In this document: positions 7,239 to 62,740 of the stretch, piece after piece
Layout of the letters: the number at the start of each line of letters is the position of its first letter
Numbering within the stretch: the stretch's first letter is position 1
Translations under genes and position numbers: made by a program
The notes under the pieces: generated by a model
Database searches by the model: none
What the model saw: only the letters and a program-made list of their open reading frames with translations
What the model was told of the DNA's origin: nothing
Assembly: GCF_028368995.1 (NCBI RefSeq)
Contig: NZ_JAQNDL010000001.1
Location: 576,001 to 640,000, forward strand
Direction: 5' to 3'
Source: Nannocystis bainbridge
GTDB lineage: Bacteria > Myxococcota_A > Polyangia > Nannocystales > Nannocystaceae
DNA length: 64,000 bases

Positions 7239-8318
7239 TCAGAAGCGAATCATCAGCCCGTCCGTCGTCACCGCGATCCGCCGCTGGCCGACCGCGCGAC
7301 GACGCAGCCCGTAGTGGGCCGCCACCACCCCGAGCACGGCGAACGGCAGCGCCACGGCGAAGCCGATCAGGCTGCTCGTGCGCGCGTGCCTGGCCGCGTC
7401 CTCGCGCTCGAAGCGGGTCGGGTACGGCCGCTTGCCCGACTCGATCGCGTCGCCGCGGGCGATGAAGAAGAAACCGACGCCGAGCCCCGCCAGGGCCCCC
7501 ACCCCCGCCGCGCCGGCGACCGCGAGGTAACGACCGCTGGATTGCTGGACCTCGCGGCGCCACCCGTCCTCGCGCGCCTCGTCGGCCTCGCCGAGCTTGA
7601 CCTGCCGGGCGGCGCTGGCGGCCACGCCCTGCTGCGCGCGCTCGAGGTCGGCCTCGGCCGCGTCCACCGCCTGCGCCGCGGCGGTCGCCTCGCCGCGCAG
7701 CTTCACCACGGCGGGATCGATCGAGCTGTCCTTTTGGCCAGGTGTGGGCTTTGTCCCCGCCGGCACCGGGACCCACGGATCGGCGAGGCCCTCGTCGCGC
7801 AGCGCCGCCTCGACCGTGTCCCTGGCCGCCGCGCGCGGCTGGTCGCGCAAGGCTGTCTCGTGGTGCGTGCGGCGCAGCTTCAGCGCCGCCTTGCGGCACG
7901 GCTCGAGCCCGGCGAGCGCGGCGTCACGCGCAGGCTCGGACACGTAGGCGCCGAGCAGGCGCCGCAGCGCGGTCAGGCGCCCTGGTGCGAGGGTGCAGCC
8001 GACCGCGCCTGCGCGGGCCTCGGCGATCGCCGCCGTGTAGCGCTCGCCGTCGCCCTGCTGCGTCTCGGCGTCGGCGTCGGCCTCGCTCTCGGCGGCCCGC
8101 AACGCCTTTGCCGCCGCGACCTCGGCCTCCCTGGCCTTTTGGACAGCTTCGTGGGCCTGCCACTCGGCGGCCCGCAGCGCGCGGCCGGTCGCCTCCTCCT
8201 CGGCGTGCGCCTGCACGTCCTTGCCGGGCGGCGCCGGGGGGGCGAGGCGACACGCGCCGGCCGCGAGGGCCAGCGCCACCAGATGGGCTGAAATCGTGAG
8301 ACGTCGAGGGCGAGGCAT
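7239..8318 (-). CDS. Hypothetical lipoprotein with Ala-rich coiled coil and two C-terminal hydrophobic segments
   Basis: ATG at 8318 gives a signal peptide with lipobox LAAGAC; hydrophobic stretches YLAVAGAAGVGALAGLGVGFFFIA and LIGFAVALPFAVLGVVAA. Confidence 0.6.
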   Translation of the reverse strand: MPRPRRLTISAHLVALALAAGACRLAPPAPPGKDVQAHAEEEATGRALRAAEWQAHEAVQKAREAEVAAAKALRAAESEADADAETQQGDGERYTAAIAEARAGAVGCTLAPGRLTALRRLLGAYVSEPARDAALAGLEPCRKAALKLRRTHHETALRDQPRAAARDTVEAALRDEGLADPWVPVPAGTKPTPGQKDSSIDPAVVKLRGEATAAAQAVDAAEADLERAQQGVAASAARQVKLGEADEAREDGWRREVQQSSGRYLAVAGAAGVGALAGLGVGFFFIARGDAIESGKRPYPTRFEREDAARHARTSSLIGFAVALPFAVLGVVAAHYGLRRRAVGQRRIAVTTDGLMIRF

Positions 8319-8439
8319 TCGCGGCGGCCGGAGTATTGCCCACTCCGGGGCCCCCCTCAAGCCGCGGGCCGCGTACGCCGGGGCCCGTGTCCCCTGCCCC
8401 GGCGCTCTGCGACGCGACGCGCCTCGCGTCGCGCCCACC

Positions 8440-9435
8440 TCACAGCGCCAGCAGGCCGCGCGCCGCGTCGAGCGCCAGCGGCTGGGCCCCGTAGCTGGCC
8501 GCGCCGACGCCCCAGCGCGCGAAGCCGGCGGGCTCCGGCGCCTCGTCGGTGGCTGCGCCATGGCTCCACCAGCCGGTCACGCTCAATCGCTTGCCGCGCG
8601 CGTACGGCGACACCGGCGTGACCGCGTGCACGGTCTCCGCCGCGACGTTGAACACGATCAGCGTGTTGAATGACGGCACCACCTGCGCGCCGCTCGGGCC
8701 CCACACGAACTGACCGCCCGAGGCCGCGTCCCAGTCGCGGGCGAGGTGCCACACGAACGCGACGGCGCGCGCCAGCTTGTGATCGGCGTGCGGCGCCGCG
8801 AAGTCGCCGGCGACGTAGCGCGTCGCCCCGAGCTCGAGCGGACCGCCGCAGTCGCGGCCCGACAGCGCCGCCGCGAGCTCGCGGCTGGCGGCGGCGCCGA
8901 ACAGCGCGCGGCTGGCCGCGATCGTCGGGCCGGCGGGGTCGGCCTCGTCGAGCACGTGGTGTCGATAATGCGGCGAGCTGCCGAACGCCTCGACGGCGCG
9001 CCAGCGGACGGCGGCGTCGAGGGCCGCGCCGACCCGCTCGGCGAGGTCGCGGCGCAGCGCGTCGCGGATGACCACGGCCCGCCCGGCGGCCAGCTGGGCG
9101 GCGATGTCGTCCTTGCGCGCCAGCGCGGCCGGGTCGAGCGCTTCGACCAGCGACGTCGGCCACGCCGCGGGCGCGACCGCGGGCGTGCGTTCGTCGACCA
9201 GCAACCCCTCGGCGACCAGGCCGGCGACCGTCGCCGCCAGCTCGGCAGGCGAGCCGAACTCGGCGAGCGTCGCGTGGGCCGCGGCGATCGTGCGCGGGCA
9301 GGCGAACGCGGCCAGCGTCTGGAACACCCGCGGCGCCAGCGAGAAGGCGCGCCGACCGACGAGCGCGACGACCGTCGCGTCAGGCCCGGGGCGAAACACG
9401 CACGCGGGCGCGAGGACATAGGACGACTCCGGCAT
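8440..9435 (-). CDS. Fe(II)/2-oxoglutarate oxygenase (prolyl-hydroxylase-like) with an N-terminal RRE/winged-helix-like domain
   Basis: YxxGDFxxPHAD ... W(D)xxxGG ... PxFNTLxxF ... VHAV ... RLSVTGW. The first ~85 aa show a strands-then-helices pattern ending LVAEGLLV. Confidence 0.8.
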   Translation of the reverse strand: MPESSYVLAPACVFRPGPDATVVALVGRRAFSLAPRVFQTLAAFACPRTIAAAHATLAEFGSPAELAATVAGLVAEGLLVDERTPAVAPAAWPTSLVEALDPAALARKDDIAAQLAAGRAVVIRDALRRDLAERVGAALDAAVRWRAVEAFGSSPHYRHHVLDEADPAGPTIAASRALFGAAASRELAAALSGRDCGGPLELGATRYVAGDFAAPHADHKLARAVAFVWHLARDWDAASGGQFVWGPSGAQVVPSFNTLIVFNVAAETVHAVTPVSPYARGKRLSVTGWWSHGAATDEAPEPAGFARWGVGAASYGAQPLALDAARGLLAL

Positions 9436-9525
9436 TGGCACCACCACTCAGCGCTCGTACCCGCGGCCGCGCCGTCGCGTCAAGCCGCAGCGCGCTCGAC
9501 CCGTCGCGGGCGAAATGAAGCATGT

Positions 9526-10732: not shown

Positions 10733-11556
10733 CGCCGCCGCCGCTGGTCGGCTTCGCCTATCGCCGGCAGTATCGCGCCGCGCTGTGCGAGGCGGCGCGC
10801 GGGCCCGACGTGCTCGAGCTGATGGCCGAGTCCTTCGACCCGCGCCTGCCCGGCCGGATCGACGACGTGCGAGCGCTGCGCGAGCGCTACGCGCTGATCG
10901 GGCACAGCGTCGGGCTGTCGATCGGCTCGGTCGAGCGCCCGCCGCAGGCCTACCTCGACGGGCTGGCGCGCTTCGTCGAGTTGGTCCAGCCGCGGGTCTA
11001 CAGCGACCACTTCGCCGTCACCTACGCCGGCGGGCGCGACCTCGGGCACCTGACGCCGATCTGGTACGGCGAGCAGGCGCTCGAGGTCGTCGTGAACAAC
11101 CTTACCGCGGCGCGGCGCTTGCTCGGCGTGCCGATCTGCCTCGAGCTCATCGCCGAGCCGTTCTCACTGCCCGGCGCGCAGTGGGACCAGGCCCGCTTCG
11201 CCGCCGAGGTGTGGCGCGCGTGCGGCTGCGGGATCCACCTCGACGTCACCAACGTCTTCATCAACGCCCGCAACTCGGGTCAGTGCCCGCGGGCCTCGAT
11301 CGCCGCGCTGCCGGCCGAGGCGGTGCAGATGATCCACGCCGTCGGCTTCGGCCGCTACGAGCACGGCGAGCTGGCCGACACCCACGACCAGGACATCCAG
11401 CAGGAGCTGTGGGACCTGCTCGCGTACACCTTCACGCGCGTGCGCCCGACCACCGCCGTCATCGAGCGCGACGCCAACTTCCCGCCGTACGAAGCGCTGC
11501 TGGCCGAGGTCGATCGCATGCGCTCGCTCGCCACGCCCCTGGAGGTCGCCTCGTGA
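10729..11556 (+). CDS. DUF692 / multinuclear non-heme iron-dependent oxidative enzyme (MNIO; MbnB/TglH/ChrH family)
   Basis: GHSVGLSIGS, SDH, LELI, LDVTN, IHAVG, DTH, IERDANFPP: the iron-ligand pattern of DUF692. GTG start overlaps the upstream stop (GTGA). Confidence 0.9.
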   Translation: MTPPPLVGFAYRRQYRAALCEAARGPDVLELMAESFDPRLPGRIDDVRALRERYALIGHSVGLSIGSVERPPQAYLDGLARFVELVQPRVYSDHFAVTYAGGRDLGHLTPIWYGEQALEVVVNNLTAARRLLGVPICLELIAEPFSLPGAQWDQARFAAEVWRACGCGIHLDVTNVFINARNSGQCPRASIAALPAEAVQMIHAVGFGRYEHGELADTHDQDIQQELWDLLAYTFTRVRPTTAVIERDANFPPYEALLAEVDRMRSLATPLEVAS

Positions 11557-13691
11557 CACCGCTGACCCTCTGCATGATCGTCAAGTTCCCGCCGATCCAG
11601 GGCGGCGTCAGCCAGCAGAGCTACTGGCTGGCGCACAACTTCGCGCGCGCCGGTCACCGCATCCACGTCGTCACCAACGCGCTCGAGGCCGCGTCCGACT
11701 ATCGCATGTTCCTGCCGGCGGCCGAGCGCCCGCACCTCGAGGGCGAGTACCCCGGCGGCGGGTTCGTCCGCCTGCACGCGAGCGACGAGGCCGGGCTCGA
11801 GGGCAACTACATCCCGTACGCCAACCCGTACGTCAGCAAGCTGGCGGCGCTGGCCCGCGACGTGGTCCGCGAGCACGCCTGCGATCTGATCTGGGCCGCG
11901 TACCTCGAGCCCTACGGGGTCGCGGCGGCGCTGGCGTCGAAGCTCACCGGGGTGCCCTACGCGGTCCGCCACGCCGGCAGCGACATCGCCGGGCTGGCGC
12001 AGCTGCCGGCGCGCCAGAACCTCTACCTCGACGTGCTCCGCCACGCGAGCCTGGTGGTCACCGCGCCGTTCCTGCGGCCGACGCTGGAGCGCGTCGGGGT
12101 CGCGCACGCGCACATGTTCGCGGTGCCGCTCGCCGCATACGCCAGCGCGGGCTTCGAGCCCGACGGGCCGAAGCTCGACGTCGAGGCATTGCTCGACGAG
12201 GCCGCGGGCGAGCGCGGGCCGTGGCCCCGGCCGGCCCGGCGCTTCGACCCCGCGCTGCCGACGTTCGGCATCTACGGCAAGGTCAGCGGCTACAAGGGCA
12301 TGTTCGAGGTCGTCGCCGCGCTCGGCGAGCTCGCGGCCCAAGGTCGCCGCTTCAATCTTTTGACGTTGGTCGGCGCGCGCGGGCCGGCGGTCACGGCCCT
12401 GCAGCAGGCGGTCGCGCAGGCCGGCATCGCCGAGTCGACGTACGCGCTGCCGTTCTTGCCGCACTGGATGGTGCCGCGGTTCATCCGCACGTGCACCGCC
12501 GTGTGTTTTTTGGAGAACCGGTTCCCGATCGCCATCCACACGCCGCAGGTCGGGTTCGAGATCCTCGCGTGCGGCCGCTGCCTGATCGTGTCCGAGGAGG
12601 TGCGATCGAAGACGCAGCGGCGCGCCGATCTGGTCGACGGGGTGCACGCGCTCGTGATCGACGATCCGGCCGACGCGGCGCAGGTGCGGCGGGCGCTGGC
12701 GCGGGTGCTCGACGACCCCGCCGAGGTGCGGGCGATCGGCGCGCGCGGGCGAGAGTTCGTGACCGGGCGGTTCGCCGCGCCGGACGTGTCGGCGGTGGTG
12801 AAGCGGCTGCGCCGCGTGATCGAGGAGGCAAACCCGATGTCCCTGGAGGGCCTGCAGCGGACCCTGAGCGAGCTCTACGCCGATCCGTCGCTGCGCGCCG
12901 CGCTGGCGGCGGGCGAGGAGGCTGGCCTGCACGGCCGCGACCTCGACGACCGCGAGCGCGCGGCGGTGCTGGAGCTGGGCCGGCGGCTGATGCCGCAGGT
13001 CGAGCGCTTCGGGCAGATGCTCGTGCACAAGCGGCTCGAGTATTTCCTCGAGCTGTTCGCCGCGACCGCGCCGCACCTGCGGGCGCACGAGCCGGCGCTG
13101 TTGGCTGCGTTCGCGCGCGAGTTCGATTTCCGCTGGCGCGCGCCGGCCGAGGACGTCGCGTACTTCGGCGAGTTCCTGCGCCGCCTGCTGGTCGCGCCGT
13201 GGCCGGCCCACGTGCGCGAGCTGGTGCGCTACGACGAATGCATGTGGCGGGCCGAGACGACCGACGACGACGCCGCGCCCGCGTTCGAGCGCCTGCTCGA
13301 GATGCAGATCACCGAGCCGCCCGGCCTCGGCGCGGCGCCGCTGAGCGCCGAGGACCGCGTCGCGCTCGCGCCCGGGGTGATCGTCGAGCGCTTCGCTCAC
13401 CCGGTGCACCGCCTGGCCGCGGAGGGCCCCGAGGCGCGGTTCGAGCCGGCCGCGACGGTGATCGTGTTCACGCCCCGGCGCGGAGCGACCGCCGCCCGCG
13501 CCCACGTGATGAACGAGGAGCTCGTCCGCCTGGCCACAGCCGCGGGCGACGGCCATCCGGTGGCGGCGCTGCTCGACGAGGCCGCGGCGCGTCACGCGGA
13601 GCGCCCGGCCGAGGCGGTGCGGCAAGCCGCCCTGCGCGCGCTGCAACGGCTCGGCGAGCGTCACGTGCTCGTGCGCGCGCCGCTGCGGTGA
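11553..13691 (+). CDS. GT4-like glycosyltransferase fused to a C-terminal MNIO-partner-like (DUF2063/RRE-type) domain
   Basis: GTG at 11553 overlaps the MNIO stop. N-terminal part: KFPPIQGGVS, HAGSDI, GKVSGYKG, EILACG. From ATG 12837: MSLEGLQRTLSELYADP...KR... ending in a winged-helix-like segment. Confidence 0.8.
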   Translation: MTPLTLCMIVKFPPIQGGVSQQSYWLAHNFARAGHRIHVVTNALEAASDYRMFLPAAERPHLEGEYPGGGFVRLHASDEAGLEGNYIPYANPYVSKLAALARDVVREHACDLIWAAYLEPYGVAAALASKLTGVPYAVRHAGSDIAGLAQLPARQNLYLDVLRHASLVVTAPFLRPTLERVGVAHAHMFAVPLAAYASAGFEPDGPKLDVEALLDEAAGERGPWPRPARRFDPALPTFGIYGKVSGYKGMFEVVAALGELAAQGRRFNLLTLVGARGPAVTALQQAVAQAGIAESTYALPFLPHWMVPRFIRTCTAVCFLENRFPIAIHTPQVGFEILACGRCLIVSEEVRSKTQRRADLVDGVHALVIDDPADAAQVRRALARVLDDPAEVRAIGARGREFVTGRFAAPDVSAVVKRLRRVIEEANPMSLEGLQRTLSELYADPSLRAALAAGEEAGLHGRDLDDRERAAVLELGRRLMPQVERFGQMLVHKRLEYFLELFAATAPHLRAHEPALLAAFAREFDFRWRAPAEDVAYFGEFLRRLLVAPWPAHVRELVRYDECMWRAETTDDDAAPAFERLLEMQITEPPGLGAAPLSAEDRVALAPGVIVERFAHPVHRLAAEGPEARFEPAATVIVFTPRRGATAARAHVMNEELVRLATAAGDGHPVAALLDEAAARHAERPAEAVRQAALRALQRLGERHVLVRAPLR

Positions 13692-13880
13692 CTGCCATGA
13701 TCGCCCGAGTCACTCGGCGAGCACCACATCGTGCGCCGTTGCAGTGACTGCCGTGATCGTCCGTATCACTCGGCGAGCGTCACGGGATCGTGCGCGCCGC
13801 TGCTGTGACTGCCGTGATCGTCCGTATCACTCGGCGAGCGTCACGTGATCGTGCGCGCGCCGCTGCAGTGACTGCTGTGA
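13650..13880. repeat. Four imperfect ~60-bp tandem repeats; the first is the 3' end of the GT gene
   Basis: Units beginning CTCGGCGAGC at 13650, 13713, 13769 and 13830. Confidence 0.85.
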
Positions 13881-13918
13881 TTCGCTGCGAGCCCGGTCGA
13901 CTACGATCGGGCGCTCGA

Positions 13919-16507
13919 TCAGGGCAAAATCTCGACGTACCCATCCGTCCCGTGCACGCGGATCCGCTGCCCGTCGCGGATCCGCCGGGTCGCCTGGTCC
14001 ACGCCGACGACGGCCGGCAGGCCGTACTCGCGGGCGATCACGGCCCCATGCGTCATCAAGCCCCCCACCTCCGTCACCAGCCCGGCGATGGCGACGAACA
14101 GCGGCGTCCAGCTCGGGTCGGTGTACGCGGTGACGAGGATGTCGCCCGCCTCGAGATCGGCCCGCGCCATGTCGAGCACGACGCGGGCCCGCCCCTCGAT
14201 CGTGCCGGCGGACACCGGCAAGCCGACCAGCGCGCCGGCCGGCAATCCGTCGGATCGGTACGCCCCGGCGACGACCTCGCCGTCCGAGGTGAGCACGCGC
14301 GGCGGCGTGAGCGAATGATAGGACTCGAAGGCTTCTCTGCGCTGGCGGAGCAGCGCCGCGTCGACGTGATGCGTGCGCACGACGTCGAGGAGCTCCGGCA
14401 ACGTGAGGTAGTCGATGTCGTCCAGCGCCCGCAGCACGCCGGCCTGCACCAGGCGCCCGGCTTCTTCCACCAGCGCCTGCTTGTAGACGAAGAAGCGGCA
14501 GATCATGCCGTACTTCGGGTACTCCCGGTAGCCGATGAAGGTGCGCACGCGATCGATCTGCCGCCGGGTCTCCTCGGCCTTGCGCTCCCCGTCCGGCAGG
14601 GCCCGCAGGCGCTCCTGCAGCTCCTGCGATCGCTTCAGCGCCTCCTGCCGCCCTCGCTCGAAGCGCCGCGCGCCGGCGCCCGGCCCCAGGTTCTTGATGT
14701 TGCCCAGGAGCACCGGCACGAGCATGCCGGGGCGTTCGCTCCACCGCGGCCGCGTGATGTCGATCTCGCCGGCGCAGCGCATGCCGTACGCGTCGAGGTA
14801 GGCGACGATGGCGTCCCGCGCCTCCGGCCCGCCCGGGAGCGTGGCCAGCCCGGCCAGGAAATCGTCGTGCTCGACGCGCTGGAGAAACGCCACCACCTCC
14901 GGATACGGGCGAATGACGTCGGCGACGTCGAGCAGCGCCAGCCCCATCTCCGAGGTGACGTTGTCGGCGACGGACTGCGTGAGGATGTCGGCGGCGCTCT
15001 TCTCGCCAAGCCACGCGTGAAGCTGCTCGTTGAGCCACCAGGTGGCCTCGAACGCGGCCATGAGCACGCGATGGCCCTGCGGATCGAACAACCGCCGCTT
15101 CAGCTCGGGGATGTCGGCGAGGATGCACTCGAGCAGCGCCGCGCCGGTCTTGCCGTGGATGTCGCGCTTCAGGGCGGCGATGGAGGCCTGGTTGCGCTCG
15201 ATCAACCCGGCGACGATGGCGGGGTCGGTGTCGATCGGGGCCGGCGCGCCACCAGCCGGCGCCGCGGCGGGCGGTGGGTCCGGGAGCGCGCGGATGAAAT
15301 CACCGCGCTCCCAGATCGACCGCAGGGCGTCGCGGATCCGCGGGTCGGAGCGGCCGAAGACCTCGAGGAGCTTGGCCCGGCTCGTCGGCGCGGCGAGGCC
15401 CCGCGTGACCTCGACGAACAACCTCCCGCCCGCCTCGTGCATGGGCCCGGCCGCAGCGAGGCGAAACAGCGAAAGCCCCAGCGGCTTCATCGGGTCGGTC
15501 ATCATCTGCTGGTGGCCGACCGAGACGTAGACGTGGTTGTCGCCGTCGCCCGCCTCGGGGATGGGAAACAGGGTGGTGATCGGCCGGCTCTGCACGATCG
15601 AAAATTCGTCGTCGACCAGGCACCACTCGATGTCCTGCGGGCGGCCAAAATGCGCCTCGATCTGCCGGCCGAGCTGCGCGAGCCGTAGCACCTGCGCGTC
15701 GGTCAGCGCCGGCTGCCGCTGCCGCTCGGGCGCGACCGCCTGCGCCTGCGTCCCGCCGACCGGCGCGGCGACGACGGCGAACTGCTTGCAGGCGATCGTC
15801 CTGGTGACGATATCGCCGCCCAACACCTTGAAGATGTCCGGGTTCACCAGGCCGGAGACCTGGGCCTCGCCGAGGCCGAAGCTGGCCTCGACGGAGACGA
15901 CCTTGCGGTGCGACGTGACGGGGTCGGCCGTGAACAGGACGCCGGCGGCCTGCGGGAAGACCATGCGCTGCACGACCACGGCCATGCCGACCTTGCGGTG
16001 ATCGAAGCCGTTGCGCTGGCGGTAGACCACGGCCCGCTCGCTGAACAGCGAGGCCCAGCAGCGACGGACGTGCGCCACGATCGCCGCCGGCCCGACGATG
16101 TTGAGGTACGTGTCCTGCTGGCCGGCGAAGGAGGCCGTCGGCAGGTCCTCCGCGGTCGCGCTCGAGCGGACGGCGTACGCCTCGCGCTCGCCGAGCCGAA
16201 CCACCGCGCCGGTGATCGCGGTTGCCAGCTCGTCCGGGATGGTGATGGCTTCCACGATCGCGTGGATCTCCGCCGCGAGCGCCCGAATCGCCGCGCGATC
16301 GTCCGGCTGCAAGCGCGCCAGCCGGGCCAGTGACTCGGCGATCGAGGGCGCCACGACCCGCTGAAACGCCGCCGTCGTCACGCAGAAGCCGGCGGGCACG
16401 CGCACGCCTTCGAGCCGCGACAGCTCCCCCAGATGCGCGCCCTTGCCGCCGACAACCGCGACCTGCGTCCGATCGATCTCCTCGAAATTCACCACGTAGT
16501 GGCCCAT
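13919..16507 (-). CDS. rph: Rifamycin-inactivating phosphotransferase (PEP-synthase-like, 862 aa)
   Basis: GGKG, VRSSATAEDL, QDIEW, QSRPITTL ATP-grasp; SVGHQQMMTD, YGMRCAGEIDIT, GYREYPKY central domain; C-terminal GGLMTHGAVIAREYG phospho-His swivel. ATG 16507 preceded by AGGGAG. Confidence 0.85.
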   Translation of the reverse strand: MGHYVVNFEEIDRTQVAVVGGKGAHLGELSRLEGVRVPAGFCVTTAAFQRVVAPSIAESLARLARLQPDDRAAIRALAAEIHAIVEAITIPDELATAITGAVVRLGEREAYAVRSSATAEDLPTASFAGQQDTYLNIVGPAAIVAHVRRCWASLFSERAVVYRQRNGFDHRKVGMAVVVQRMVFPQAAGVLFTADPVTSHRKVVSVEASFGLGEAQVSGLVNPDIFKVLGGDIVTRTIACKQFAVVAAPVGGTQAQAVAPERQRQPALTDAQVLRLAQLGRQIEAHFGRPQDIEWCLVDDEFSIVQSRPITTLFPIPEAGDGDNHVYVSVGHQQMMTDPMKPLGLSLFRLAAAGPMHEAGGRLFVEVTRGLAAPTSRAKLLEVFGRSDPRIRDALRSIWERGDFIRALPDPPPAAAPAGGAPAPIDTDPAIVAGLIERNQASIAALKRDIHGKTGAALLECILADIPELKRRLFDPQGHRVLMAAFEATWWLNEQLHAWLGEKSAADILTQSVADNVTSEMGLALLDVADVIRPYPEVVAFLQRVEHDDFLAGLATLPGGPEARDAIVAYLDAYGMRCAGEIDITRPRWSERPGMLVPVLLGNIKNLGPGAGARRFERGRQEALKRSQELQERLRALPDGERKAEETRRQIDRVRTFIGYREYPKYGMICRFFVYKQALVEEAGRLVQAGVLRALDDIDYLTLPELLDVVRTHHVDAALLRQRREAFESYHSLTPPRVLTSDGEVVAGAYRSDGLPAGALVGLPVSAGTIEGRARVVLDMARADLEAGDILVTAYTDPSWTPLFVAIAGLVTEVGGLMTHGAVIAREYGLPAVVGVDQATRRIRDGQRIRVHGTDGYVEILP

Positions 16508-16718
16508 CCGCGCACTCCCTTCGCAAAAGGAGCGAGAGCATAACGCGGCTAGCGAGGCAGTCCACCCCCATTCGCGCTGGCGCTTTGTGACAGTGCGAAG
16601 ATCGGCGGAGGCCCGAAAGGGCGCCCCGGCGCGGCCACGAAGCGCTACACTTGCGGTGGAAGAAGCGAGGAGAGGCGAGTTCGGGCCGCTCGACCCGCGT
16701 CGCCTCGCCGGCTCCCGA

Positions 16719-17384
16719 TCAGCTCGCGGCATTCGCCGGCGGCGCGTCGAATCGATAGGGGGTGCGCTGCGCCGAAGGTCGCGCGGCGAACTCCTGCGCG
16801 AACCGGACCAGCGCGGGGTACGGCTGCAGCGGCAGCGTGGCCCGGAACGTCAGGTGATCGACGAGGCAGTACAGCGAGGCCTCGAACAGGCTCAGCTCGC
16901 GCGACGCGGGCAACGACTCCAGCACCCGCGCGAGGTGCTCGTCGAGCCAGGCGAGCGCGCCCGCGAAGCCCTCGCGCGCCTTGACGAAGTAGAGGTTGTC
17001 GGCCGGCAGCTGCGCGACCACGGTGCCGAAGATCAGCTGCACCTGCGCGGCCATGGCGTGCCGCACCAGCTCGTGGGCGTTGCGCGCCAGATCGCTGCCC
17101 AGCTGCTCCGGCCAGACGACGCGCCGCGGCGGGTCCGCGAGCTCGGCGAGGGCCCGGCAGATGTTCTCGGCCCCGAACACCGGCGAGCCGCCGCGTCGCA
17201 AGATCGGCAGCTTCAGGGCCGGGTTGCCGGCGTAGATCGCCGGATCGGTCTCGGTCATGTCGTGGACCGGCACGAGCTCGAACGACACGCCGAGCTCGTG
17301 GGCGAAGATCAGGGCCAGTCGTGTGAAATGCGAGCTGCTCCGGCCGACGATCTGAACGCGATCCGCGGTGTCATGATGTCCCAT
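16719..17384 (-). CDS. Glutathione S-transferase-like protein
   Basis: GRSSSHFTR, NPALKLPIL, ENICRAL N-terminal GST pattern; helical C-terminal domain. Confidence 0.75.
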   Translation of the reverse strand: MGHHDTADRVQIVGRSSSHFTRLALIFAHELGVSFELVPVHDMTETDPAIYAGNPALKLPILRRGGSPVFGAENICRALAELADPPRRVVWPEQLGSDLARNAHELVRHAMAAQVQLIFGTVVAQLPADNLYFVKAREGFAGALAWLDEHLARVLESLPASRELSLFEASLYCLVDHLTFRATLPLQPYPALVRFAQEFAARPSAQRTPYRFDAPPANAAS

Positions 17385-19207: not shown

Positions 19208-19277
19208 CGCCCGGCTGCGGGCGATCGGTCCCGCGGTGAAGCGCGCCCCTGCGGACGCGCGAGCGGTGACGCGCCCG

Positions 19278-20561: not shown

Positions 20562-20564
20562 GGC

Positions 20565-51700: not shown

Positions 51701-51715
51701 TGCTACGGTGAGGCC

Positions 51716-53241: not shown

Positions 53242-55260
53242 CTACTCCGCCTCGCCCGGCGGGTGGAACACGTAGTTGTGCTGGGCCTGGCGGGCCGCGC
53301 GGGGGAACTCGAGCCGCAGCACCACCTTGCGCAGGCAGTCCGACAGCGGGCTCGGTGCCATGCGCAGCTTCAGCACCTTGCCGCCGCGGCCGACCAGCGC
53401 GACGACTTCGACGTCGCCCGGCCCGTGCTCGTCGTAGCACTGGCGGACCCGCGGCGAGCGGTTGGTCCGCAGCAGGACCTTGCGGAAATCGCCTGCGCTC
53501 AGCTGATCGGCGCCGCCGTTGCCGGGCGCCGCGTCGTCGATCGCCTCGCCGGCCGAATCGACCGCCACCAGATCCTCCTCGGGGGCCGGCGTCGGCGTCG
53601 GCGCGGCCGGCTCGGGCTGGGCCACCCGCGCCAGCGTGGATGCCTCTTGGGACATGTCCGAACGGCCAGCCGTCGGCGTCGCCGGCGACTCTGGTTTCGG
53701 CGGGTGGTTGATCGCCGGCGGCGTGCCCGGCTTGTCGGCGGTGGCCCAGGCCTGCAGGCGCCAGCCGATCAGCGCGCACAGCCCCGCGATCACCAGCAAC
53801 CCGAGGGCCAGCTGGGTGTTGTTGCGGCTGGCGGGCGCCGGGCCGGCCCAGGTCGGCTCGACGCGGGTCGCCGGCGTCGTCATCGACGCGGTCACCGGGG
53901 CGCTGGGGGCCGTCGTCGAGGCGCTGAACGACAGCGACGGCCGCTCGCTCGCGTTCGGCGGCGGGATGATGAACGCCCGCGGGTCGCTCAACGAGGCCTG
54001 GGGCTCGCTGGCGGGCTCGGGCGCGGGCGCGGGCGGCGACGCGGCCGCGGCCGCGGCCGACAGCGGCGATGCGGCCACCGGCGGCGCCGTCGGCGGGCGC
54101 AGCGGCGGCTTGGTCGCCGGCCGGCTCGCCGACCTGGCGGGCCGACTGTCGGGCTTGCTGGCCGGCTTCGCCTCGGCGCGGCTCTCTTGCTTGCTCGCCG
54201 GCTTGCTGGCCCGCACCGGCGTCGCGGCCGCCTCGGGCTCGAGCTCCTCGACCAGCGCCGAGAGCGACGTGAGCGACGAGGCCGACAGCCCCTCGGGCTC
54301 GTCGTCCCTGACGTCGGGCAGCTCGGGCTCGACCTCGTACGACAGCACCGCCAGGTTCGGCGGCGGCTCGATGCGATGCAGGCCGGTGTCGATCGTGACC
54401 TGCCCCTTCGACGGTCGGTACGGCAGGTCGGCGCTCTCGAACACCTGGTCCCACGCCGAATCGATGGCGCCCTCGGCGTGCTGCGCCGCGTCGGCGACCC
54501 CTGGCCGTAGCGCATCGATCTCGGCGGCGCGCAGCTGCTGCGCCCACTCGGCCGCGCTCGGCCGCGAATGCCCGCGGACAACCTGCGCGATCGGGGCCAG
54601 CCACGGCGCCTCGGCCTCGCCCTTGCCGACCACCTCGAGCAGCACCGCCGCCAGCATCGACACGTCGGCCGACACGGCCGGCTCGGCGCCGGACAGGTGC
54701 GACGGCGCCTGCACGTCGAGGTCGACCAGCTTGACCCCGGCGTGGCTCCACACCAGGTTGCCCGGCGAAATCGCCCCGTGCGGGGCCCCGAGCGCGTGCA
54801 GCGTGGCCAGGCCCTCGGCCAGCTCGGCCGCCAGCTTGAGCAGGCCGGCGCCCTCGAAGCGTGGGTCGTTCTCGGCGTGGTAGAGGTTCTTGCCCTCCGC
54901 GTGCTCCATCACGGCGTACCACAGGCCGCCCATGGTGCCCTCGGCGAGAACCGCGGCGACGCACGGGTGGCGCACGCCGAGGCGCCTGCGGGCCCGCTCG
55001 GCGATCCGTCCGACCACCTCGCGCTGCTCCGGCGCCGCCAACACCTTGACCACCACCTGCTGGTTGCTGGCCTGGTCGCGGCCCGAGTAGACGCAGCCGA
55101 GGTCGCCGGAGCCGAGCAGCTCGGTCAGCACGTAGCGGCCGCCCAGCACGTGGCCGCGCAGGTCGCCGAGCACCTCGACCTCGGACGGCTTGCCGCCCTG
55201 CCCGACCGGCCCGCCGAGCATCTCCGGCAGCGGATCCTCGTCGAGCGGGATCGAGTGCAT
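53242..55260 (-). CDS. Ser/Thr kinase-like (probable pseudokinase) membrane protein
   Basis: RY.L...LGSG..G.VY, VVKVL, VMEH..G; HGA and DLD replace HRD and DFG; TM segment; C-terminal CY...C..LEFP domain. Start uncertain. Confidence 0.7.
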   Translation of the reverse strand: MHSIPLDEDPLPEMLGGPVGQGGKPSEVEVLGDLRGHVLGGRYVLTELLGSGDLGCVYSGRDQASNQQVVVKVLAAPEQREVVGRIAERARRRLGVRHPCVAAVLAEGTMGGLWYAVMEHAEGKNLYHAENDPRFEGAGLLKLAAELAEGLATLHALGAPHGAISPGNLVWSHAGVKLVDLDVQAPSHLSGAEPAVSADVSMLAAVLLEVVGKGEAEAPWLAPIAQVVRGHSRPSAAEWAQQLRAAEIDALRPGVADAAQHAEGAIDSAWDQVFESADLPYRPSKGQVTIDTGLHRIEPPPNLAVLSYEVEPELPDVRDDEPEGLSASSLTSLSALVEELEPEAAATPVRASKPASKQESRAEAKPASKPDSRPARSASRPATKPPLRPPTAPPVAASPLSAAAAAASPPAPAPEPASEPQASLSDPRAFIIPPPNASERPSLSFSASTTAPSAPVTASMTTPATRVEPTWAGPAPASRNNTQLALGLLVIAGLCALIGWRLQAWATADKPGTPPAINHPPKPESPATPTAGRSDMSQEASTLARVAQPEPAAPTPTPAPEEDLVAVDSAGEAIDDAAPGNGGADQLSAGDFRKVLLRTNRSPRVRQCYDEHGPGDVEVVALVGRGGKVLKLRMAPSPLSDCLRKVVLRLEFPRAARQAQHNYVFHPPGEAE

Positions 55261-55426
55261 CGTCCAGCTGCGTGGCCGACGCGGCTTGGGCCTGGAGTCG
55301 GGAGGACTTGCCGGTACAACCATGAGCGGGGGTGGCGAAAGCGTGCAACGGTTGGCGCCCGCGGTCAACGGCCTGCCCGCGGGCCGGGGTCCGCTCTTGC
55401 GCTCGCGCGGCCGCCCGCCGCCCCCA

Positions 55427-56713
<1,287 letters not shown>

Positions 56714-57681: not shown

Positions 57682-60627
57682 GTGGAGGTCGAGCCGACGC
57701 CCTCGCAGGACACCTCGGTGACCGGCGAGATCACCGGGGAGGGTGAGCTCCCGCAGGCCCCTGGCGCGTCGGTCGACGACCTGTCCCCAGGGACATGTGT
57801 CGGCCGCTACATCATCCTCGGTCGCCTCGGCGCCGGCGCCATGGGCGTCGTCTACGCCGCCTTCGACCCCGAGCTCGACCGCAAGATCGCCCTCAAGCTG
57901 CTGAACTCCGGCGGCAGCGCCCGGCTCGACGCCCGCGCCCGCCTGCTGCGCGAGGCCAAGTCGCTGGCCCGCCTGTCGCACCCGAACGTGGTCGGCGTCC
58001 ACGACGTCGGCACCTACGGCGACCACATCTTCCTCGCCATGGAGTTCGTCCCCGGGCGCACGCTCACCGCCTGGCTCAAAGAACAGCCGCGGCGCTGGCC
58101 CCAGGTGCTGGAGGTCATGCGCTGCGCCGGCGAGGGCCTGGCCGCCGCCCACGCCGCCGGCCTGGTCCACCGCGACTTCAAGCCCGACAACATCCTCATC
58201 GGCGACGACGGCCGCGCTCGCGTCCTCGACTTCGGCCTCGCGCGCGCCTCCGGCGAGGCGCCCGAGAACCTCTCGAACGACAGCGAGGCGCTCGCCGCCA
58301 TCGCCTCCGCCTCGACCTCCGGCGCCCACCGCTCGCGCGCCCACGCAGCCGAGCTCGCCCTCGTCACCCGCACCGGCGCGCTGATCGGCACGCCCGCGTA
58401 CATGTCCCCCGAGCAGCACCTCGGCCGCCCCGCCGACGCGCTCAGCGATCAGTTCTCGTTCTCGATCGCCCTCTACCAGGCGCTCTACGGCGTGCGCCCG
58501 TTCAGCGGCGCGCGCCTGTCGTCCCTCGCCTATCAGATCATGAAGGGCAAGGTCGAGGCCCCGCCCGCCGGCTCGCAGGTCCCGGGCTGGCTGCGCAAGG
58601 TGGTCGTCCGCGGCCTCGCGCTCGACGCCGAGGACCGCTGGCCGTCGATGCGCGCCATGCTGACCGCCCTCGCCCGCGAGCGCGGCCTCGGTAGGCCCGG
58701 CGCCTGGCTGCTCGGCGGCCTCGCCGGCCTCGGCTTCGGCCTGGCGCTGTGGCTCACCCGCGACCCCGCCGTCAGCCCGTGCCAGGGCAGCGCGCAGCGG
58801 CTCGCGGGGATCTGGGACGCGGCCCGCGTCGCCGAGATCCAGCAGGCCTTCCTCGCCTCGGGGGCGCCCTACGCCGCCGACGCCTGGCAGAGCGTCGACA
58901 AGGCGCTCTCGGCCTACGCCCAGCGATGGGTCGCGGCCCACCACGACGCCTGCGCCGCGACGCACATCTACGGCGAGCAGTCGGAGCGCATCCTCGACCT
59001 CCGCACCCGCTGCCTGAACCGCCACCTCGGCCGCTTCAAGGCCCTCAGCGACGGCCTCGCCCGCGCCGGCGCCGGCACCATCGAGCACGCCCCCGAGGCC
59101 GCCTCGCTGCTCGGCGACCTCTCGACCTGCGCCGACGCCGAGGCGCTCGACAGCGTGGTCCCGGCCCCCGAAGATCCCGCCAAGGTCGCCGACGTCGAGG
59201 CCCGCCTGGCCGACGCCGGGGCCCAGGAGCTGGCCGGCGACTACACGCGAGCCTTCGAGCTGGCGCTGCTGGCCGTCAACGAGGCGACCGCCCTCGCCTA
59301 TGCGCCGCTCGAGGCCGAGGCGCTGCGGGTGCGCGCGCGGATCCAGCGGCGCCTGGCTCGCCACGACATGAGCGCCGAGTCGCTCACCGCCGCCATCGCC
59401 GCCGCCGCCCGCGGCCGCGACGATCACACCGCCGCGACCGCCTGGACCGACCTCGTCTACCACGTCGGCACCCACAAGCCCGACGCCGTCCGCCTCGACG
59501 CCCACCGCCTCGCCGCCGAGGCCGCGATCGTGCGCGCCGGCGACGACGCCTCGCTGCGGGCCCGCCTCGACCTCGGCGTCGCCAACGGCCTGCGCCTGCT
59601 CGGCCGCTACGACGAGGCCCTCGCCCCGGCCCAGCGCGCGCTCGCGCTGTACGAGCGCGACGACCCCGGCAACGCCCACAACCTCGCCGACGCGCTGCAC
59701 AGCCTCGCGCTGATCCACCAGCGCCGAAACCACGTGGCCGACGCCCAGCGGGCCTTCGACCGCGCCATCGCGGCCCACGAGCGCGCCTACGGCCGGGCCC
59801 ACCCGGTCACCGCCAGCGTCCTCAGTCACGCCGCCGTGCTCGCGCTCGAGCAGGGCGACCTCGATCGCGCCGACGCGCTCGCGCGCGAGGCCCACGACGT
59901 GCGCCAGCGGAGCTTGCCCCGAGGCAACGTCGCCCTCGCCGAGTCGGCCCGGATCCTCGCCGAGATCGCGGCCCTGCGCGGCGACCTGGATGGCGCCCAG
60001 GCCCGCTACGACGAGGCGCTGGCGATCTACCGCGACCAGCCCGACGTCGACGCCATGCACCGGGCCACCCTGCACAACGACCTCGCCATCCTGGCCGACC
60101 AGCGCGGCGACCTGCCCGGCGCGCGCCAGCACTACCGGGACGCGCTCGAGCTGTACCGCCAGCGCTTCGGCTTCGAGCACGTGTACGCGCGGATCGTCGA
60201 GCGCAACCTCGTCGAGGTCGCGCTGTGGCTCGGCGATCCGGCGGCCGCGTTGACGCTGGCCGATCGGCTGATCGCCAGCGCCCCGCGCGAGCCGCCGATC
60301 GAGCCGCCGGTGCCCTACGTGCTGGCCTTGCGGGCCCAGGCCCTGCTCGCGCTCGGCCGCGACGCCGAGGCGCGCGAGGCCGCCGAGCGCGCCGTCGCCG
60401 ACCTCGACGCGCACCTCGGCGGCGCCCCGGACGCCGAAGAGGCGGCGATCGTGCGCGCCACCCTGGCCCGCGTGCTCCCGACCGGCGGCGACGACGGCAA
60501 GCGGCGGCTGGCGCTGATGCTGCTCGCCGAGCCCGAGCTGCGCCGCGCCGCCGAGGCCAAGAAGACCGCCGCCGCGCGAGCGCTGGCCGCCGTGCACGAC
60601 CTGGCCTCGCCGCCCTCGCGACCTTGA
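57682..60627 (+). CDS. Ser/Thr protein kinase with TM segment and TPR repeats
   Basis: GAGAMGVVY, ALK, HRDFKPDN, DFGLA, GTPAYMSPEQ; kinesin-light-chain-like TPRs. Start approximate. Confidence 0.92.
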   Translation: MEVEPTPSQDTSVTGEITGEGELPQAPGASVDDLSPGTCVGRYIILGRLGAGAMGVVYAAFDPELDRKIALKLLNSGGSARLDARARLLREAKSLARLSHPNVVGVHDVGTYGDHIFLAMEFVPGRTLTAWLKEQPRRWPQVLEVMRCAGEGLAAAHAAGLVHRDFKPDNILIGDDGRARVLDFGLARASGEAPENLSNDSEALAAIASASTSGAHRSRAHAAELALVTRTGALIGTPAYMSPEQHLGRPADALSDQFSFSIALYQALYGVRPFSGARLSSLAYQIMKGKVEAPPAGSQVPGWLRKVVVRGLALDAEDRWPSMRAMLTALARERGLGRPGAWLLGGLAGLGFGLALWLTRDPAVSPCQGSAQRLAGIWDAARVAEIQQAFLASGAPYAADAWQSVDKALSAYAQRWVAAHHDACAATHIYGEQSERILDLRTRCLNRHLGRFKALSDGLARAGAGTIEHAPEAASLLGDLSTCADAEALDSVVPAPEDPAKVADVEARLADAGAQELAGDYTRAFELALLAVNEATALAYAPLEAEALRVRARIQRRLARHDMSAESLTAAIAAAARGRDDHTAATAWTDLVYHVGTHKPDAVRLDAHRLAAEAAIVRAGDDASLRARLDLGVANGLRLLGRYDEALAPAQRALALYERDDPGNAHNLADALHSLALIHQRRNHVADAQRAFDRAIAAHERAYGRAHPVTASVLSHAAVLALEQGDLDRADALAREAHDVRQRSLPRGNVALAESARILAEIAALRGDLDGAQARYDEALAIYRDQPDVDAMHRATLHNDLAILADQRGDLPGARQHYRDALELYRQRFGFEHVYARIVERNLVEVALWLGDPAAALTLADRLIASAPREPPIEPPVPYVLALRAQALLALGRDAEAREAAERAVADLDAHLGGAPDAEEAAIVRATLARVLPTGGDDGKRRLALMLLAEPELRRAAEAKKTAAARALAAVHDLASPPSRP

Positions 60628-60849
60628 CCTGTCCCGAGCGACCTCCCCGAAAGGACAGGTCGGATCGGCCAGTCGATGACGTCGGCGAGTGCGGTTCGCG
60701 GCCCCTCGCCCCCAAAACACGCGCATGGAGGCAATGACGGATCGGTCGTTCGCTTCTCACGCGTCGCCCGCGGGGGTAAGTTCGACCGACCTACGAACCG
60801 GCTTGCTTACGGACTCCCGGCCGTCTTTCCCGGCCTGATCGGCACCGCC

Positions 60850-62550
60850 ATGCACAAATTCGACCTCCGCTCCTCCCTCGCGCTCGTCGGCGGCTTCGGC
60901 CTCCTCGTCGCCTGCCCCCCCGGCGGCGGCACCACCACCGAGACCGACACCGACACGTCCAGCAGCGAGACGAGCACGACCGAGCTGCCCGGCACCAGCG
61001 TGGCGCCGACCACCGATCCGACCACGACCACCGGGACCACCGTCCCGACCACGACCGAGACCACCACCGCGGCGACGACGACCACGACCACCACGACCAC
61101 CACCGGCGAGCCCGACGGGGCCCTGTGCGTCGCGCTGGGCGGCCAGGACGGGATCGCCGCGCTGGTCGCCGCCGCGGTCCAGGGCGTGCTGCTCGACGAC
61201 AAGATCAACGCCTATTTCCTCAACAGCGACGTCGACGGCGGCAACCTCGGAACCTGCCTCGAGAAGCAGCTCGGCGCGCTCGCCGGGTGCGACGGCGTCG
61301 AATACGACTGCCAGGACATGCAGGCCGCCCACGCCGGCCTCGGCATCTCGGCCCTCGATTTCGCCGACTTCGCCGCCGACTTCGCCGTCGCCCTCGACAC
61401 CCACCAGGCCAGCCACCCCGAGCTCGGCGACGACGACAAGGACACCATCCTGTCCGCGCTGGCGGCGATGGAGGCCGACATCGTCGAGGACCCCGACGGC
61501 GACCAGACCCTCTACCAGCGGCTCGGCCGCAAGCCGGCGCTGCGGGCCCTCGTCGGCGTCTCGGGCGAGGCCGGCTCGTTCCTCGACAACGTCGCCCTCG
61601 ACCCGGCGATCAACGGCTTCTTCGGCGCCGCCGACCACGCCCGCCTCAACACCTGCCTCACGCGCCAGCTCGGCGGCATCGACGGCCCGAGCAAGTACGG
61701 CCTCGAGGTCGACGCCCCCGCGCCCGCCGACCCGGGCGTCGCCGCCGCCAACCCCTGCAAATCGATGGCCGAGGCGCACGAGGGCCTGACCGACGCCAAG
61801 GACATGGGCGGCATCGACATCATGGACTTCGGCGCCCTGCTGGGCGACCTCGTCGCCGCCATGAACACCTTCATGGTCCCCCAGCCCGACCAGGACGTGC
61901 TGCTCGGCGTGCTCGGCTCGATGTGCGAGGACATCGTCATGCTGTCGGCCAAGAACGACTGCCCGACGGCGCAGAAGCTCGAGGTCGTCGAGGCGACCGC
62001 GATCGGCGGCATGGTGATCGACGAGATCTACGACGGGTCGTTCGCCACCATGTGGTGCCACGAGATCGAGGTCCCCGACGACCCGATCAACTTCGTGCGC
62101 GGCGTCGAGCTCAAGCTCGGCATCAACCACAACTGGGTCGGCGACCTCACCGTCAAGCTGATCAGCCCCGAGGACAAGGTCCTCACCCTGGTCAGCCGCC
62201 CCGGCCTGCTCGAGATGAACGACGACGGCGGCGGCTGCTGCGGCGACAGCGCCAACCTCTCGAAGGACTTCCCGCTCACGTTCAAGGACGGGGCCCTCCA
62301 CGCCGCCGAGGACCTCGGCAAGGCGCTCGCCAACACCAACCAGGTGGTCTGCAAGGACGACGGCATCAACCCGTGCGAGTGGGCGCCCAGCCCCGGCTCG
62401 GGCCCGGGCATGAGCTTCGCCGACTTCTTCGGCGACACCGCGACCGGCACCTGGCGCCTGTGCGTCGCCGACTCCAACATCAACGACGCCGGCCTGGTCG
62501 ACTCGATCGCGCTCGCCGTCCAGCGCGTCAAGTACGACCCGATGCCCTGA
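60850..62550 (+). CDS. Lipoprotein with Thr-rich linker, two truncated-hemoglobin-like domains and a proprotein-convertase P-domain
   Basis: LVAC lipobox; LGG..GI...D.KIN.YF...M.AAH.GL and LYQRLG...D.AIN.FF...M.EAH.GL; HNWVGDL.V.L.SP ... GTW.L.V.D....G. Confidence 0.72.
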   Translation: MHKFDLRSSLALVGGFGLLVACPPGGGTTTETDTDTSSSETSTTELPGTSVAPTTDPTTTTGTTVPTTTETTTAATTTTTTTTTTGEPDGALCVALGGQDGIAALVAAAVQGVLLDDKINAYFLNSDVDGGNLGTCLEKQLGALAGCDGVEYDCQDMQAAHAGLGISALDFADFAADFAVALDTHQASHPELGDDDKDTILSALAAMEADIVEDPDGDQTLYQRLGRKPALRALVGVSGEAGSFLDNVALDPAINGFFGAADHARLNTCLTRQLGGIDGPSKYGLEVDAPAPADPGVAAANPCKSMAEAHEGLTDAKDMGGIDIMDFGALLGDLVAAMNTFMVPQPDQDVLLGVLGSMCEDIVMLSAKNDCPTAQKLEVVEATAIGGMVIDEIYDGSFATMWCHEIEVPDDPINFVRGVELKLGINHNWVGDLTVKLISPEDKVLTLVSRPGLLEMNDDGGGCCGDSANLSKDFPLTFKDGALHAAEDLGKALANTNQVVCKDDGINPCEWAPSPGSGPGMSFADFFGDTATGTWRLCVADSNINDAGLVDSIALAVQRVKYDPMP

Positions 62551-62586
62551 GCTCCGGGCCGGCGCCCGCTGGGCGCGCCGTCACGA

Positions 62587-62740
62587 TCGCGCGAGGGACA
62601 TGTCCCCATGGACATGTCCCTCGTTCTCGCTCGCTATGGACATGTCCCGATGGACATGTCCCTCACGACCGGGCTGCCTGGACATGTCGCAGAGGACATG
62701 TCCCTCGCGACCGGGCCGTCAGGACATGTCCCGACGGCCC
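62587..62740. repeat. Array of about eleven 14-bp units (TGTCC-N4-GGACA lattice, 42-bp super-period)
   Basis: GGACATGTC[C/G] at 62596, 62610, 62638, 62652, 62680, 62694 and 62722 (spacings 14, 28, 14, 28, 14, 28). Confidence 0.9.

Follow-up and report, generated by a model that had tools for sequence, protein, structure and literature searches.

TGTCC-N4-GGACA, an over-represented gapped palindrome of Nannocystis, and its possible role at gene ends

The palindrome in the 64-kb window

The window analyzed here is the whole stretch of 64,000 nucleotides at positions 576,001 to 640,000 of contig NZ_JAQNDL010000001.1 of Nannocystis bainbridge (assembly GCF_028368995.1). Its G+C content is 70-74%, and its genes, which look myxobacterial, encode Ser/Thr kinases with TPR repeats as well as lamin-tail-domain, Kelch, zinc-ribbon-TPR, and HEAT proteins. 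The element in question is a 14-bp gapped palindrome, TGTCC-N4-GGACA, which recurs both within these genes and in the spacers between them. Seven perfect copies were located, at 19827, 38154, 44824, 50746, 57782, 62601, and 62643, and all of them stood where an initial annotation of the window had placed them. That annotation had also listed 13 imperfect copies, 12 of which proved to carry exactly one mismatch in the 10 specified bases. The other, at 41232, had been given as a one- or two-mismatch copy; it was absent from the set with at most one mismatch, and two mismatches were counted on reading of the sequence. The list was incomplete, as a one-mismatch copy at 62685 had been overlooked.

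The number of copies was compared with shuffled sequences. In 100 dinucleotide-preserving shuffles of the window the mean was 0.03 perfect copies, and none of the shuffles reached seven. The 36 coding sequences (CDSs) of the window (54,072 bases) held four perfect copies, against a mean of 0.077 after shuffling of synonymous codons (0 of 300 shuffles reached four), and 15 copies with at most one mismatch, against 1.56 +/- 1.26 (maximum 6 in 100 shuffles). The initial annotation had named codon- and dinucleotide-preserving nulls as a refuting test; the enrichment persisted under both, and the codon comparison (0.077 against 4) bears out its proposal of a signal at the nucleic-acid level that is held against codon bias. 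The half-site pentamers alone were mildly enriched in the window (68 and 55 copies, against 34-56 expected). The spacing was strict. When all spacers from N0 to N30 were counted in the window, TGTCC-Nx-GGACA was found only with x = 4 (seven), x = 18 (five), and x = 23 (one). The numbers with N3 and N5, the other refuting test that had been named, were zero in the window and also in the unseeded flanks from related genomes described below. The repeat is real and has hundreds of times as many copies as chance provides. That it merely reflects chance or the composition of a genome with 72% G+C can hardly be credited: the dinucleotide and codon nulls lie near zero, other spacers such as N3 and N5 are empty, and the motif returns in at least 10 related genomes. 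A chance or compositional origin was refuted by the nulls that were run and was rejected.

Neighbouring half-sites had been claimed to keep a 14-bp register, and the spacer counts for inverted and for direct half-site pairs confirmed it. GGACA-Nx-TGTCC occurred in the window with x = 0 (eight), x = 14 (four), and x = 28 (three), plus a single case of x = 6, and direct half-site pairs occurred as N9 (10) and N23 (seven), plus a single N20. Because the units abut on this register, a 10-bp palindrome, GGACATGTCC, is formed at the junction. The window contains eight perfect copies of this 10-mer, where order-3 Markov simulations gave 0.1. The arrays and single copies were as follows (strand in parentheses).

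62587-62740: largest array, with the genes 60676-62550 (+) and 62748-63998 (-) converging on it; 3.3 tandem copies (81% matches in Tandem Repeats Finder) of a 42-bp unit, GGACATGTCC-N4-GGACATGTCC-N18; its 10-mers start at 62596, 62610, 62638, 62652, 62680 (one mismatch), 62694, and 62722
44768-44837: array between the convergent genes 43770-44741 (+) and 44845-45696 (-); GGACATGTCT at 44777 and, 42 bp apart from it, GGACATGTCC at 44819; perfect 14-mer at 44824
60630-60671: degenerate three-unit array in the 48-nt spacer between the stop of the kinase-TPR gene (60625-60627) and the gene at 60676
51739-51780: three TGTCC half-sites with 14-nt spacing and degenerate GGACA halves, shortly past the stop at 51700
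40678-40710: three-unit array at the junction of two minus-strand lamin-tail-domain genes; it overlaps the stop of 40697-41341 (-) and adjoins, upstream, the probable start of 36535-40677 (-)
36485-36498: one-mismatch copy, 36 nt 3' of the stop of 36535-40677 (-)
19785-19840: four in-register 14-bp slots within the ferredoxin/FAD/NAD reductase CDS 19560-20561 (-); perfect copy at 19827, one-mismatch copy at 19785, and numerous A/T-ending codons
38154-38167: perfect copy within a lamin-tail-domain CDS, 36535-40677 (-), read in the codon-compatible frame xxT GTC Cnn nnG GAC Axx
50746-50759: perfect copy encoding CPQGH, in the N-box to G1 box interval of the histidine kinase gene 48742-51045 (+)
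57782-57795: perfect copy about 12 codons into a Ser/Thr kinase-TPR gene, whose start is probably the GTG at 57745
53641-53668: GGACATGTCC at 53650 with in-register neighbouring half-sites, within the kinase gene 53242-55368 (-)
23453-23480: two in-register GGACA half-sites, one of them part of a one-mismatch 14-mer, within gcvP 22761-25730 (+)
7727, 8132, 20202, 21002, 24214, 30886, and 35946: scattered one-mismatch copies within CDSs

All the intergenic copies and arrays of the window (36485, 40678-40710, 44768-44837, 51739-51780, 60630-60671, and 62587-62740) follow a stop codon. Four of the seven perfect copies lie within CDSs. A few of the scattered one-mismatch copies in CDSs may be due to chance, as the codon null alone yields about 1.6 copies with one mismatch or none. 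The frame and the A/T-ending codons of the gcvP stretch matched their earlier description; five such codons stand at 23453-23480, in a gene whose G+C content at third codon positions (GC3) is 0.97.

Range and conservation in related genomes

One genome for each of 185,579 species (596 Gb) was scanned for the doubled 10-mer GGACATGTCC-N4-GGACATGTCC. This doublet was found at 78 loci, 75 of which were in Nannocystis, Nannocystaceae, or Myxococcales records. Sixty-four of these loci belonged to Nannocystis: 10 in N. punicea, 11 in N. pusilla, 13 in sp. RBIL2, six in N. exedens, five in N. radixulma, and 8, 8, and 3 in three metagenome-assembled genomes (MAGs). Another nine were found in one Nannocystaceae MAG and two in one Myxococcales MAG. 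No doublet locus overlaps the window, to which the only similarity was 67-81%, at kinase and histidine-kinase genes. The three doublets outside the clade (L010, L015, and L065, from a Gammaproteobacteria MAG, Diplocloster agilis, and a Terriglobales MAG; positions 2001-2024) look like ordinary chance terminator-type hairpins, about 0.5 such matches being estimated by chance in 596 Gb. A short T-run follows L010, and an A-run precedes L015.

The single palindrome was then counted in the flanks of the 75 clade loci (269,980 bases, excluding 150 nt on each side of the seeded doublet). These unseeded flanks contained 30 copies of the 14-mer with N4 and none with N3 or N5, which is about 1 per 9 kb and equal to the density in the window. 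One-mismatch copies in 358,280 bases numbered 113 with N4, against 4-24 with other spacers. Isolated 14-mers were more frequent in the unseeded flanks than isolated 10-mers (27 against 6), and therefore the 14-bp gapped palindrome is the basic unit. The comparison with parS or matS made in the initial annotation did not hold, as copies at about 1 per 9 kb, scattered over contig positions in at least 10 genomes, are neither few nor confined to one region. At L017 in N. punicea, two perfect 14-mers (at 2267 and 2321) lie in two identical 54-bp direct repeats within a long open reading frame (ORF), where a copy can be duplicated together with a coding repeat.

Several of these properties bear on the explanation offered in the initial annotation, a pure duplex-DNA binding lattice. 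By this explanation an abundant dimeric protein, of the nucleoid-associated or global-regulator type, would bind each 14-bp unit and polymerize cooperatively over abutting sites, and any hairpin would be incidental. We consider it unlikely, although it accounts well for the form of the motif. The crisp 5-4-5 palindrome, with its strict N4 and free 4-bp centre, has the hallmarks of a dimeric protein site: the half-sites are palindromic and keep a fixed distance, the core is sequence-specific, and the centre is free. The half-sites only alternate in orientation, and no direct N2 pairs were found in the window or in the relatives' flanks. The 14-bp register is kept in arrays that do not fold and also within CDSs, where the in-register partners N0, N14, N9, and N23 persist though 14 is not a multiple of 3; phasing within genes had likewise been claimed before. 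The lattice continues in degenerate form beyond the doublets, with G in 67% at position -8 and C in 57% at position +8. The 42 bp of the tandem repeat in the largest array, and the 42 bp between 44777 and 44819, would correspond to four helical turns.

There is also a myxobacterial precedent for such a protein. CdbA of Myxococcus xanthus is a nucleoid-associated protein with a sequence-specific, GC-rich site, and its published description reports 569 peaks, moderate specificity, and about 35% of the peaks in intergenic DNA, in a genome that is less than 10% intergenic (PMC7156744). The CdbA half-sites are 4 bp apart, as in Nannocystis. However, as far as the published motif goes, the CdbA site is a direct repeat within 18 bp and not a palindrome (PMC7156744), whereas in Nannocystis the repeat is strictly inverted and follows a 14-bp lattice. 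This counts against the precedent, and identity with the CdbA site was rejected.

The origin of the arrays was also considered. At L002 and L041 (around 2001-2045), three consecutive units have identical spacers, tcac/tcac and atcg/atcg, and recent 14-bp slippage expansion is thus seen in some arrays. As a rule, arrays as relics of replication slippage were rejected: the loop equals the neighbouring spacer in only 2-3 of the 75 doublets, and no overall direct-repeat similarity was found.

We examined which bases of the palindrome are conserved. Among variant copies, mismatches gather at the middle base of the half-site, and in TGTCC the second base (G) and the fourth (C) are almost invariant. 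Compensatory double changes in the core were not enriched among these variants. The core is therefore read as letters and not as a stem alone, and a structure-only hairpin was rejected. The lack of compensatory core changes, together with the lack of wobble asymmetry in the CDS copies (see below), also favours the binding lattice. Orthologous intergenic doublets, for example L018, L020, and L066, keep both 10-mers, and their loop and flanks diverge; between L022 and L074 an A-T to G-C change was found at +/-1. This comparison is biased, as the pairs were ascertained on perfect doublets. A fairer test used unseeded sites that were perfect in one locus and examined them in the related locus. Five unique unseeded sites were conserved, with mismatches at 0 of 50 core positions, 5 of 20 spacer positions, and about 15 of 100 flank positions. 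Among the other unseeded sites, one was absent from the orthologue, and two were not common to more distant homologous kinase genes.

The initial annotation knew of no description of TGTCC-N4-GGACA, and our literature searches likewise found no published one, although an older account in subscription journals is possible. Of 47 literature matches to GGACATGTCC, the 20 listed were all eukaryotic or viral, many of them on the p53 response element. The decamer fits the p53 half-site consensus and the doubled 10-mer with its 4-bp spacer the p53 response element, a resemblance that accounts for the p53 papers and that we take to be a coincidence.

Gene ends, hairpins, and coding copies

The seeded doublets were masked, and the position relative to genes was determined for the copies that had no more than one mismatch. 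Convergent spacers held 4.56 copies/kb (9 of 17 spacers occupied) and tandem spacers 0.99 copies/kb (5 of 48 occupied). In divergent spacers the density was 0 copies/kb (0 of 22 occupied), and in CDSs it was 0.23 copies/kb. For the doublets themselves, the stop of a gene that reads toward the doublet lay at most 30 nt ahead of it in 46 and at most 60 nt ahead in 56 of the 75 cases. The median distance from stop to doublet was 13 nt among the 56 that lie within 100 nt. Against the 46 of 75 doublets, random placement within these loci gave 1.5 of 75 (maximum 5 in 300 trials). Stops faced the doublet from both sides at 22 of the 75 doublets. The placing of intergenic copies at gene 3' ends, chiefly in convergent spacers and never in divergent ones, was the strongest positional signal, and the initial annotation had overlooked it. 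A binding lattice leaves the 20-fold excess in convergent spacers and the empty divergent spacers unexplained by itself, and the same holds for the median of 13 nt after stop codons. The 82 ORFs that end beside doublets have unrelated functions, and on this ground a regulon operator was rejected.

The hairpin potential of the doublets was also investigated. GGACATGTCC is its own reverse complement, and two copies 4 nt apart can form a 10-bp stem on either strand. Complementarity extends into the flanks: positions +/-1 were complementary at 63% of the loci, compared with 30% in controls (control maximum 48%), and positions +/-2 at 49%, compared with 30%. When the left N4 was compared with the right N4 in reverse complement, 1.80 of 4 positions agreed, against 1.12 +/- 0.10, and 0 of 2000 shuffles gave as high a value. 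As a direct copy of the loop, the left N4 showed no resemblance in the 75 doublets. The loops were nearly free, with 54 different tetramers among the 75 loci, and the flanks were richer in A on the 5' side and in T on the 3' side over 2-3 nt. Complementarity between the flanking spacers of a doublet is not needed by a binding lattice, yet it is present.

RNA folding was predicted for the sites in the window. The spacer of the largest array (62551-62747) had a minimum free energy (MFE) of -120.1 kcal/mol (z -7.81), and 0 of 200 shuffles were as stable; its first doublet is predicted to form a 15-bp stem including flanks. On either strand (z -3.75 and -4.23), the segment 44742-44844 was predicted to fold into a single long hairpin, and the 60630-60671 array was marginally above its shuffles (z -1.76). 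Among the copies within genes, local hairpins were predicted at 50746 (-21.4 kcal/mol, z -4.59) and at 57782 (-22.6 kcal/mol, z -3.70). Nothing past its own 5-bp stem was found for the 38154 copy (z 0.72), and the hairpin at 53641-53668 was at chance level (z 0.08). The proposal that every isolated 14-mer is the tip of a longer hairpin was rejected: such copies did not exceed swapped-flank controls, although the hairpins at 50746 and 57782 do extend. A scan of the window with Rfam at gathering thresholds gave 0 matches to any family, and a known RNA family was rejected. Because the intergenic copies stand at gene 3' ends and extended hairpins are predicted directly after stops, the sequence data point to a terminator-like or 3'-end role, at least for these copies.

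Copies inside genes were also analyzed. In 201 kb of CDS interior, with doublets masked, 16 perfect copies were found with N4, against 0-2 for other spacers. By the crude gene calls used, 15 of 23 copies were in the frame xxT GTC Cnn nnG GAC Axx. The reductase stretch at 19785-19840 aligns to the solved homologue 5ogx with only a one-residue gap, and therefore the run is not an inserted element. The histidine kinase copy at 50746-50759 aligns to CpxA, again with only a one-residue gap. Judged by these alignments, the two copies arose by substitution in variable protein segments and not by insertion, and mobile insertion within genes was rejected for both.

These coding copies bear on a REP/REPIN-type mobile element, copied by a REP-associated tyrosine transposase, as the source of the motif. 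The REP, BIME, and REPIN families of proteobacteria have reported effects on termination and mRNA stability. The REPs are 20-40 nt long, extragenic, and tied to a transposase gene. The Nannocystis motif resembles them in being an interspersed palindromic repeat, found at gene 3' ends and in convergent spacers, where it is densest; the families have in common that they form hairpins, predicted here for the doublets, and that they are species-specific. Many copies per genome, obtained here by extrapolation, also fit. However, the unit of 14 nt is far shorter than a REP, and it is not confined to extragenic DNA (4 of the 7 perfect copies of the window, 16 copies in the 201 kb, and doublet L055 lie within CDSs). 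Moreover, the two CDS copies examined were formed in place, with gaps of at most one residue, and direct copying between spacers is rare (2-3 of 75). The 40 window ORFs, the 82 doublet-adjacent ORFs, and 8 further ORFs showed no transposase domain. We regard such an element as very unlikely.

Uptake-signal-like or recombination-linked molecular drive was also considered. In this case the word would label self DNA, for instance for favoured uptake through a competence receptor; it would build up wherever the genome tolerates it, and paired copies would be co-opted as terminators. Known uptake sequences are oriented, ungapped 9-12-mers. The DNA uptake sequences (DUS) of Neisseriaceae and the uptake signal sequences (USS) of Pasteurellaceae are, as described in a recent preprint, about half located in predicted terminators, which hold more than 90% of their inverted repeats, and their CDS copies are frame-biased (bioRxiv 10.1101/2025.10.24.684340). 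On this description they are like the Nannocystis motif, a short lineage-specific word enriched in genes and spacers, with frame-biased CDS copies and inverted pairs in gene-end hairpins. The frame bias (15 of 23), the formation of CDS copies by substitution without insertion, the excess in spacers, and the paired copies at gene ends all agree with a drive of this kind. However, a gapped palindrome on a 14-bp lattice is not predicted by uptake; the DUS and USS are oriented and ungapped, have no lattice, and have a receptor and an uptake role that are known or predicted. They are also denser, the Nannocystis density of about 1 per 9 kb being roughly ten-fold below that of Neisseria or Haemophilus. 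We therefore judge this explanation improbable.

The analogy with the highly iterated palindrome HIP1 of cyanobacteria, made in the initial annotation, remains a fair one. HIP1 is likewise an abundant lineage-specific palindrome of coding and non-coding DNA that is kept against codon usage and has no agreed function. It differs in being ungapped and much denser, and we know of no phased arrays or 3'-end concentration of HIP1.

A candidate terminator word

The reading that we tentatively favour, and would place somewhat short of probable, is that the palindrome is a genus-specific interspersed repeat of Nannocystis-type myxobacteria, a lineage-specific word that would be read by a putative sequence-specific factor and would be used as a bidirectional terminator-like hairpin. 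The intergenic copies cluster just 3' of stop codons, above all between convergent genes. Two or more units could pair into a predicted hairpin of 10-15 bp with a 4-nt loop, and the co-varying flanks, whose complementarity was observed, would lengthen its stem. Since the stem is its own reverse complement, the same hairpin would form on transcripts of either direction, where it might act as a bidirectional terminator or as a hairpin that protects the 3' end. The word would be read by a sequence-specific factor, in the simplest case a dimeric protein on the 5-4-5 palindrome, in duplex DNA or in the hairpin stem. A sequence-specific reader or drive is suggested because the letters of the stem are invariant, the word is constant across species, and CDS copies were made in place. 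Recognition by the putative factor, or a linked drive, would retain the copies within genes. In a bolder form, which we consider rather unlikely, the palindrome would be a dedicated terminator word, with a lineage-specific dimeric factor enforcing bidirectional termination or boundaries at gene ends and the same recognition keeping the thousand-odd genic copies, or alternatively it would be a self-DNA tag of the uptake type.

Several results weigh against the terminator-like hairpin. The termination role is deduced from position and fold alone, and the gene calls behind the positions were crude and GC3-based, with uncertain starts. Nineteen of the 75 doublets were more than 100 nt from any called stop, and at least one of them, the perfect doublet L055, lies within a real kinase-TPR CDS, between the kinase and the TPR domains. 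No real T-run was found after the hairpins, three or more T in +1 to +5 being present for only 13 of the 75 doublets. Two arrays in the window, 40660-40720 (-) with z 0.56 and 51701-51790 with z 0.02, folded no better than shuffles; their half-sites are in register and cannot pair. Perfect doublets are scarce, with 3-13 per genome record. The majority form is the single 14-mer, which by extrapolation from about 1 per 9 kb would number more than 1000 per genome, although the flanks analyzed were all within 2 kb of a doublet and hence are not a random genome sample. The 41 isolated 14-mers examined showed no added flank complementarity (MFE -14.5, against -14.3 +/- 0.5 in controls), and a lone 5-bp stem is too weak for termination. 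In the CDS copies, one-mismatch variants in the sense orientation showed no G-U-compatible bias (5 wobble-type, against 15 of the opposite type), a test that is confounded by codon bias. These copies therefore lend no support to a sense-RNA hairpin, and a sense-RNA wobble signature was rejected for them.

The closest likeness that we found is to TRIT, the "Tuberculosis Rho-independent terminator" of Mycobacterium. Its description gives 147 copies in each genome, with the centre lying some 8 nt ahead of the stop (Gardner et al., 2011, PMC3152330). By that description TRIT is a hairpin conserved in both sequence and structure, palindromic and mostly bidirectional, near stop codons, scattered over the genome, and restricted to one genus, and its authors likewise proposed that an unidentified factor recognizes the conserved stem (PMC3152330). 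The Nannocystis doublets and arrays, though not the single copies, share the hairpin of conserved sequence at stops, the bidirectional form, and the restriction to one genus. TRIT differs in belonging to another phylum and, compared by description, in having an apparently unrelated sequence. The numbers differ as well, perfect doublets in Nannocystis being found at 3-13 per genome record and single 14-mers extrapolating to more than 1000, and the Nannocystis motif has in addition a 14-bp lattice, a self-complementary 10-mer, and numerous copies deep in CDSs.

Myxobacteria, whose G+C content is high, have few canonical terminators. The same has been described for mycobacteria (PMC3993855). A genus-wide word in about half of the sampled convergent spacers (9 of 17) gives a concrete, testable handle on how transcripts of high-G+C bacteria end, and, if the terminator-word reading is true, termination in a bacterium would be factor-dependent and coded in sequence. 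If the word is instead a tag of the uptake type, it would be the first self-DNA tag outside Neisseriaceae and Pasteurellaceae. In either case the palindrome adds a rare example to the hyper-abundant lineage-specific words such as uptake sequences, HIP1, REP, and TRIT, from which its genic 14-bp lattice sets it apart. In practice it could serve as a signature of Nannocystis-type DNA in metagenomes and as a landmark for the annotation of gene ends.

Other repeats were present in the window. The spacer of one convergent gene pair, 10785-13691 (+) and 13919-16732 (-), is filled at 13650-13881 by 3.8 copies of a 61-bp tandem repeat (82% matches). This repeat is of another family, occupies the same type of position as the palindrome arrays, and folds into several hairpins. 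A 66-bp tandem repeat of 4.9 copies at 19270-19591 lies upstream of the reductase gene, and its unit contains an inverted repeat of about 12 bp with a GGAC/GTCC core; the repeat may be distantly related to the TGTCC-N4-GGACA motif. Nested tandem repeats of 46 bp (4.6 copies) and 88 bp (1.9 copies, 98% matches) were found in a spacer at 29153-29389, and no ORF with a Pfam match was found in the region from 27.0 to 29.5 kb. Two groups of genes were also observed. The compact cluster at 19560-21504 consists of the ferredoxin/FAD/NAD reductase, a bacterial-like globin, and a divergently transcribed regulator of the Rrf2 family, and its Pfam domains suggest a nitric-oxide or oxidative-stress module. 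At 53242-56713, both on the minus strand, a kinase-like gene with a partial kinase-domain match lies directly downstream of a gene for a 428-residue sigma-70-family protein, which has a long N-terminal extension.

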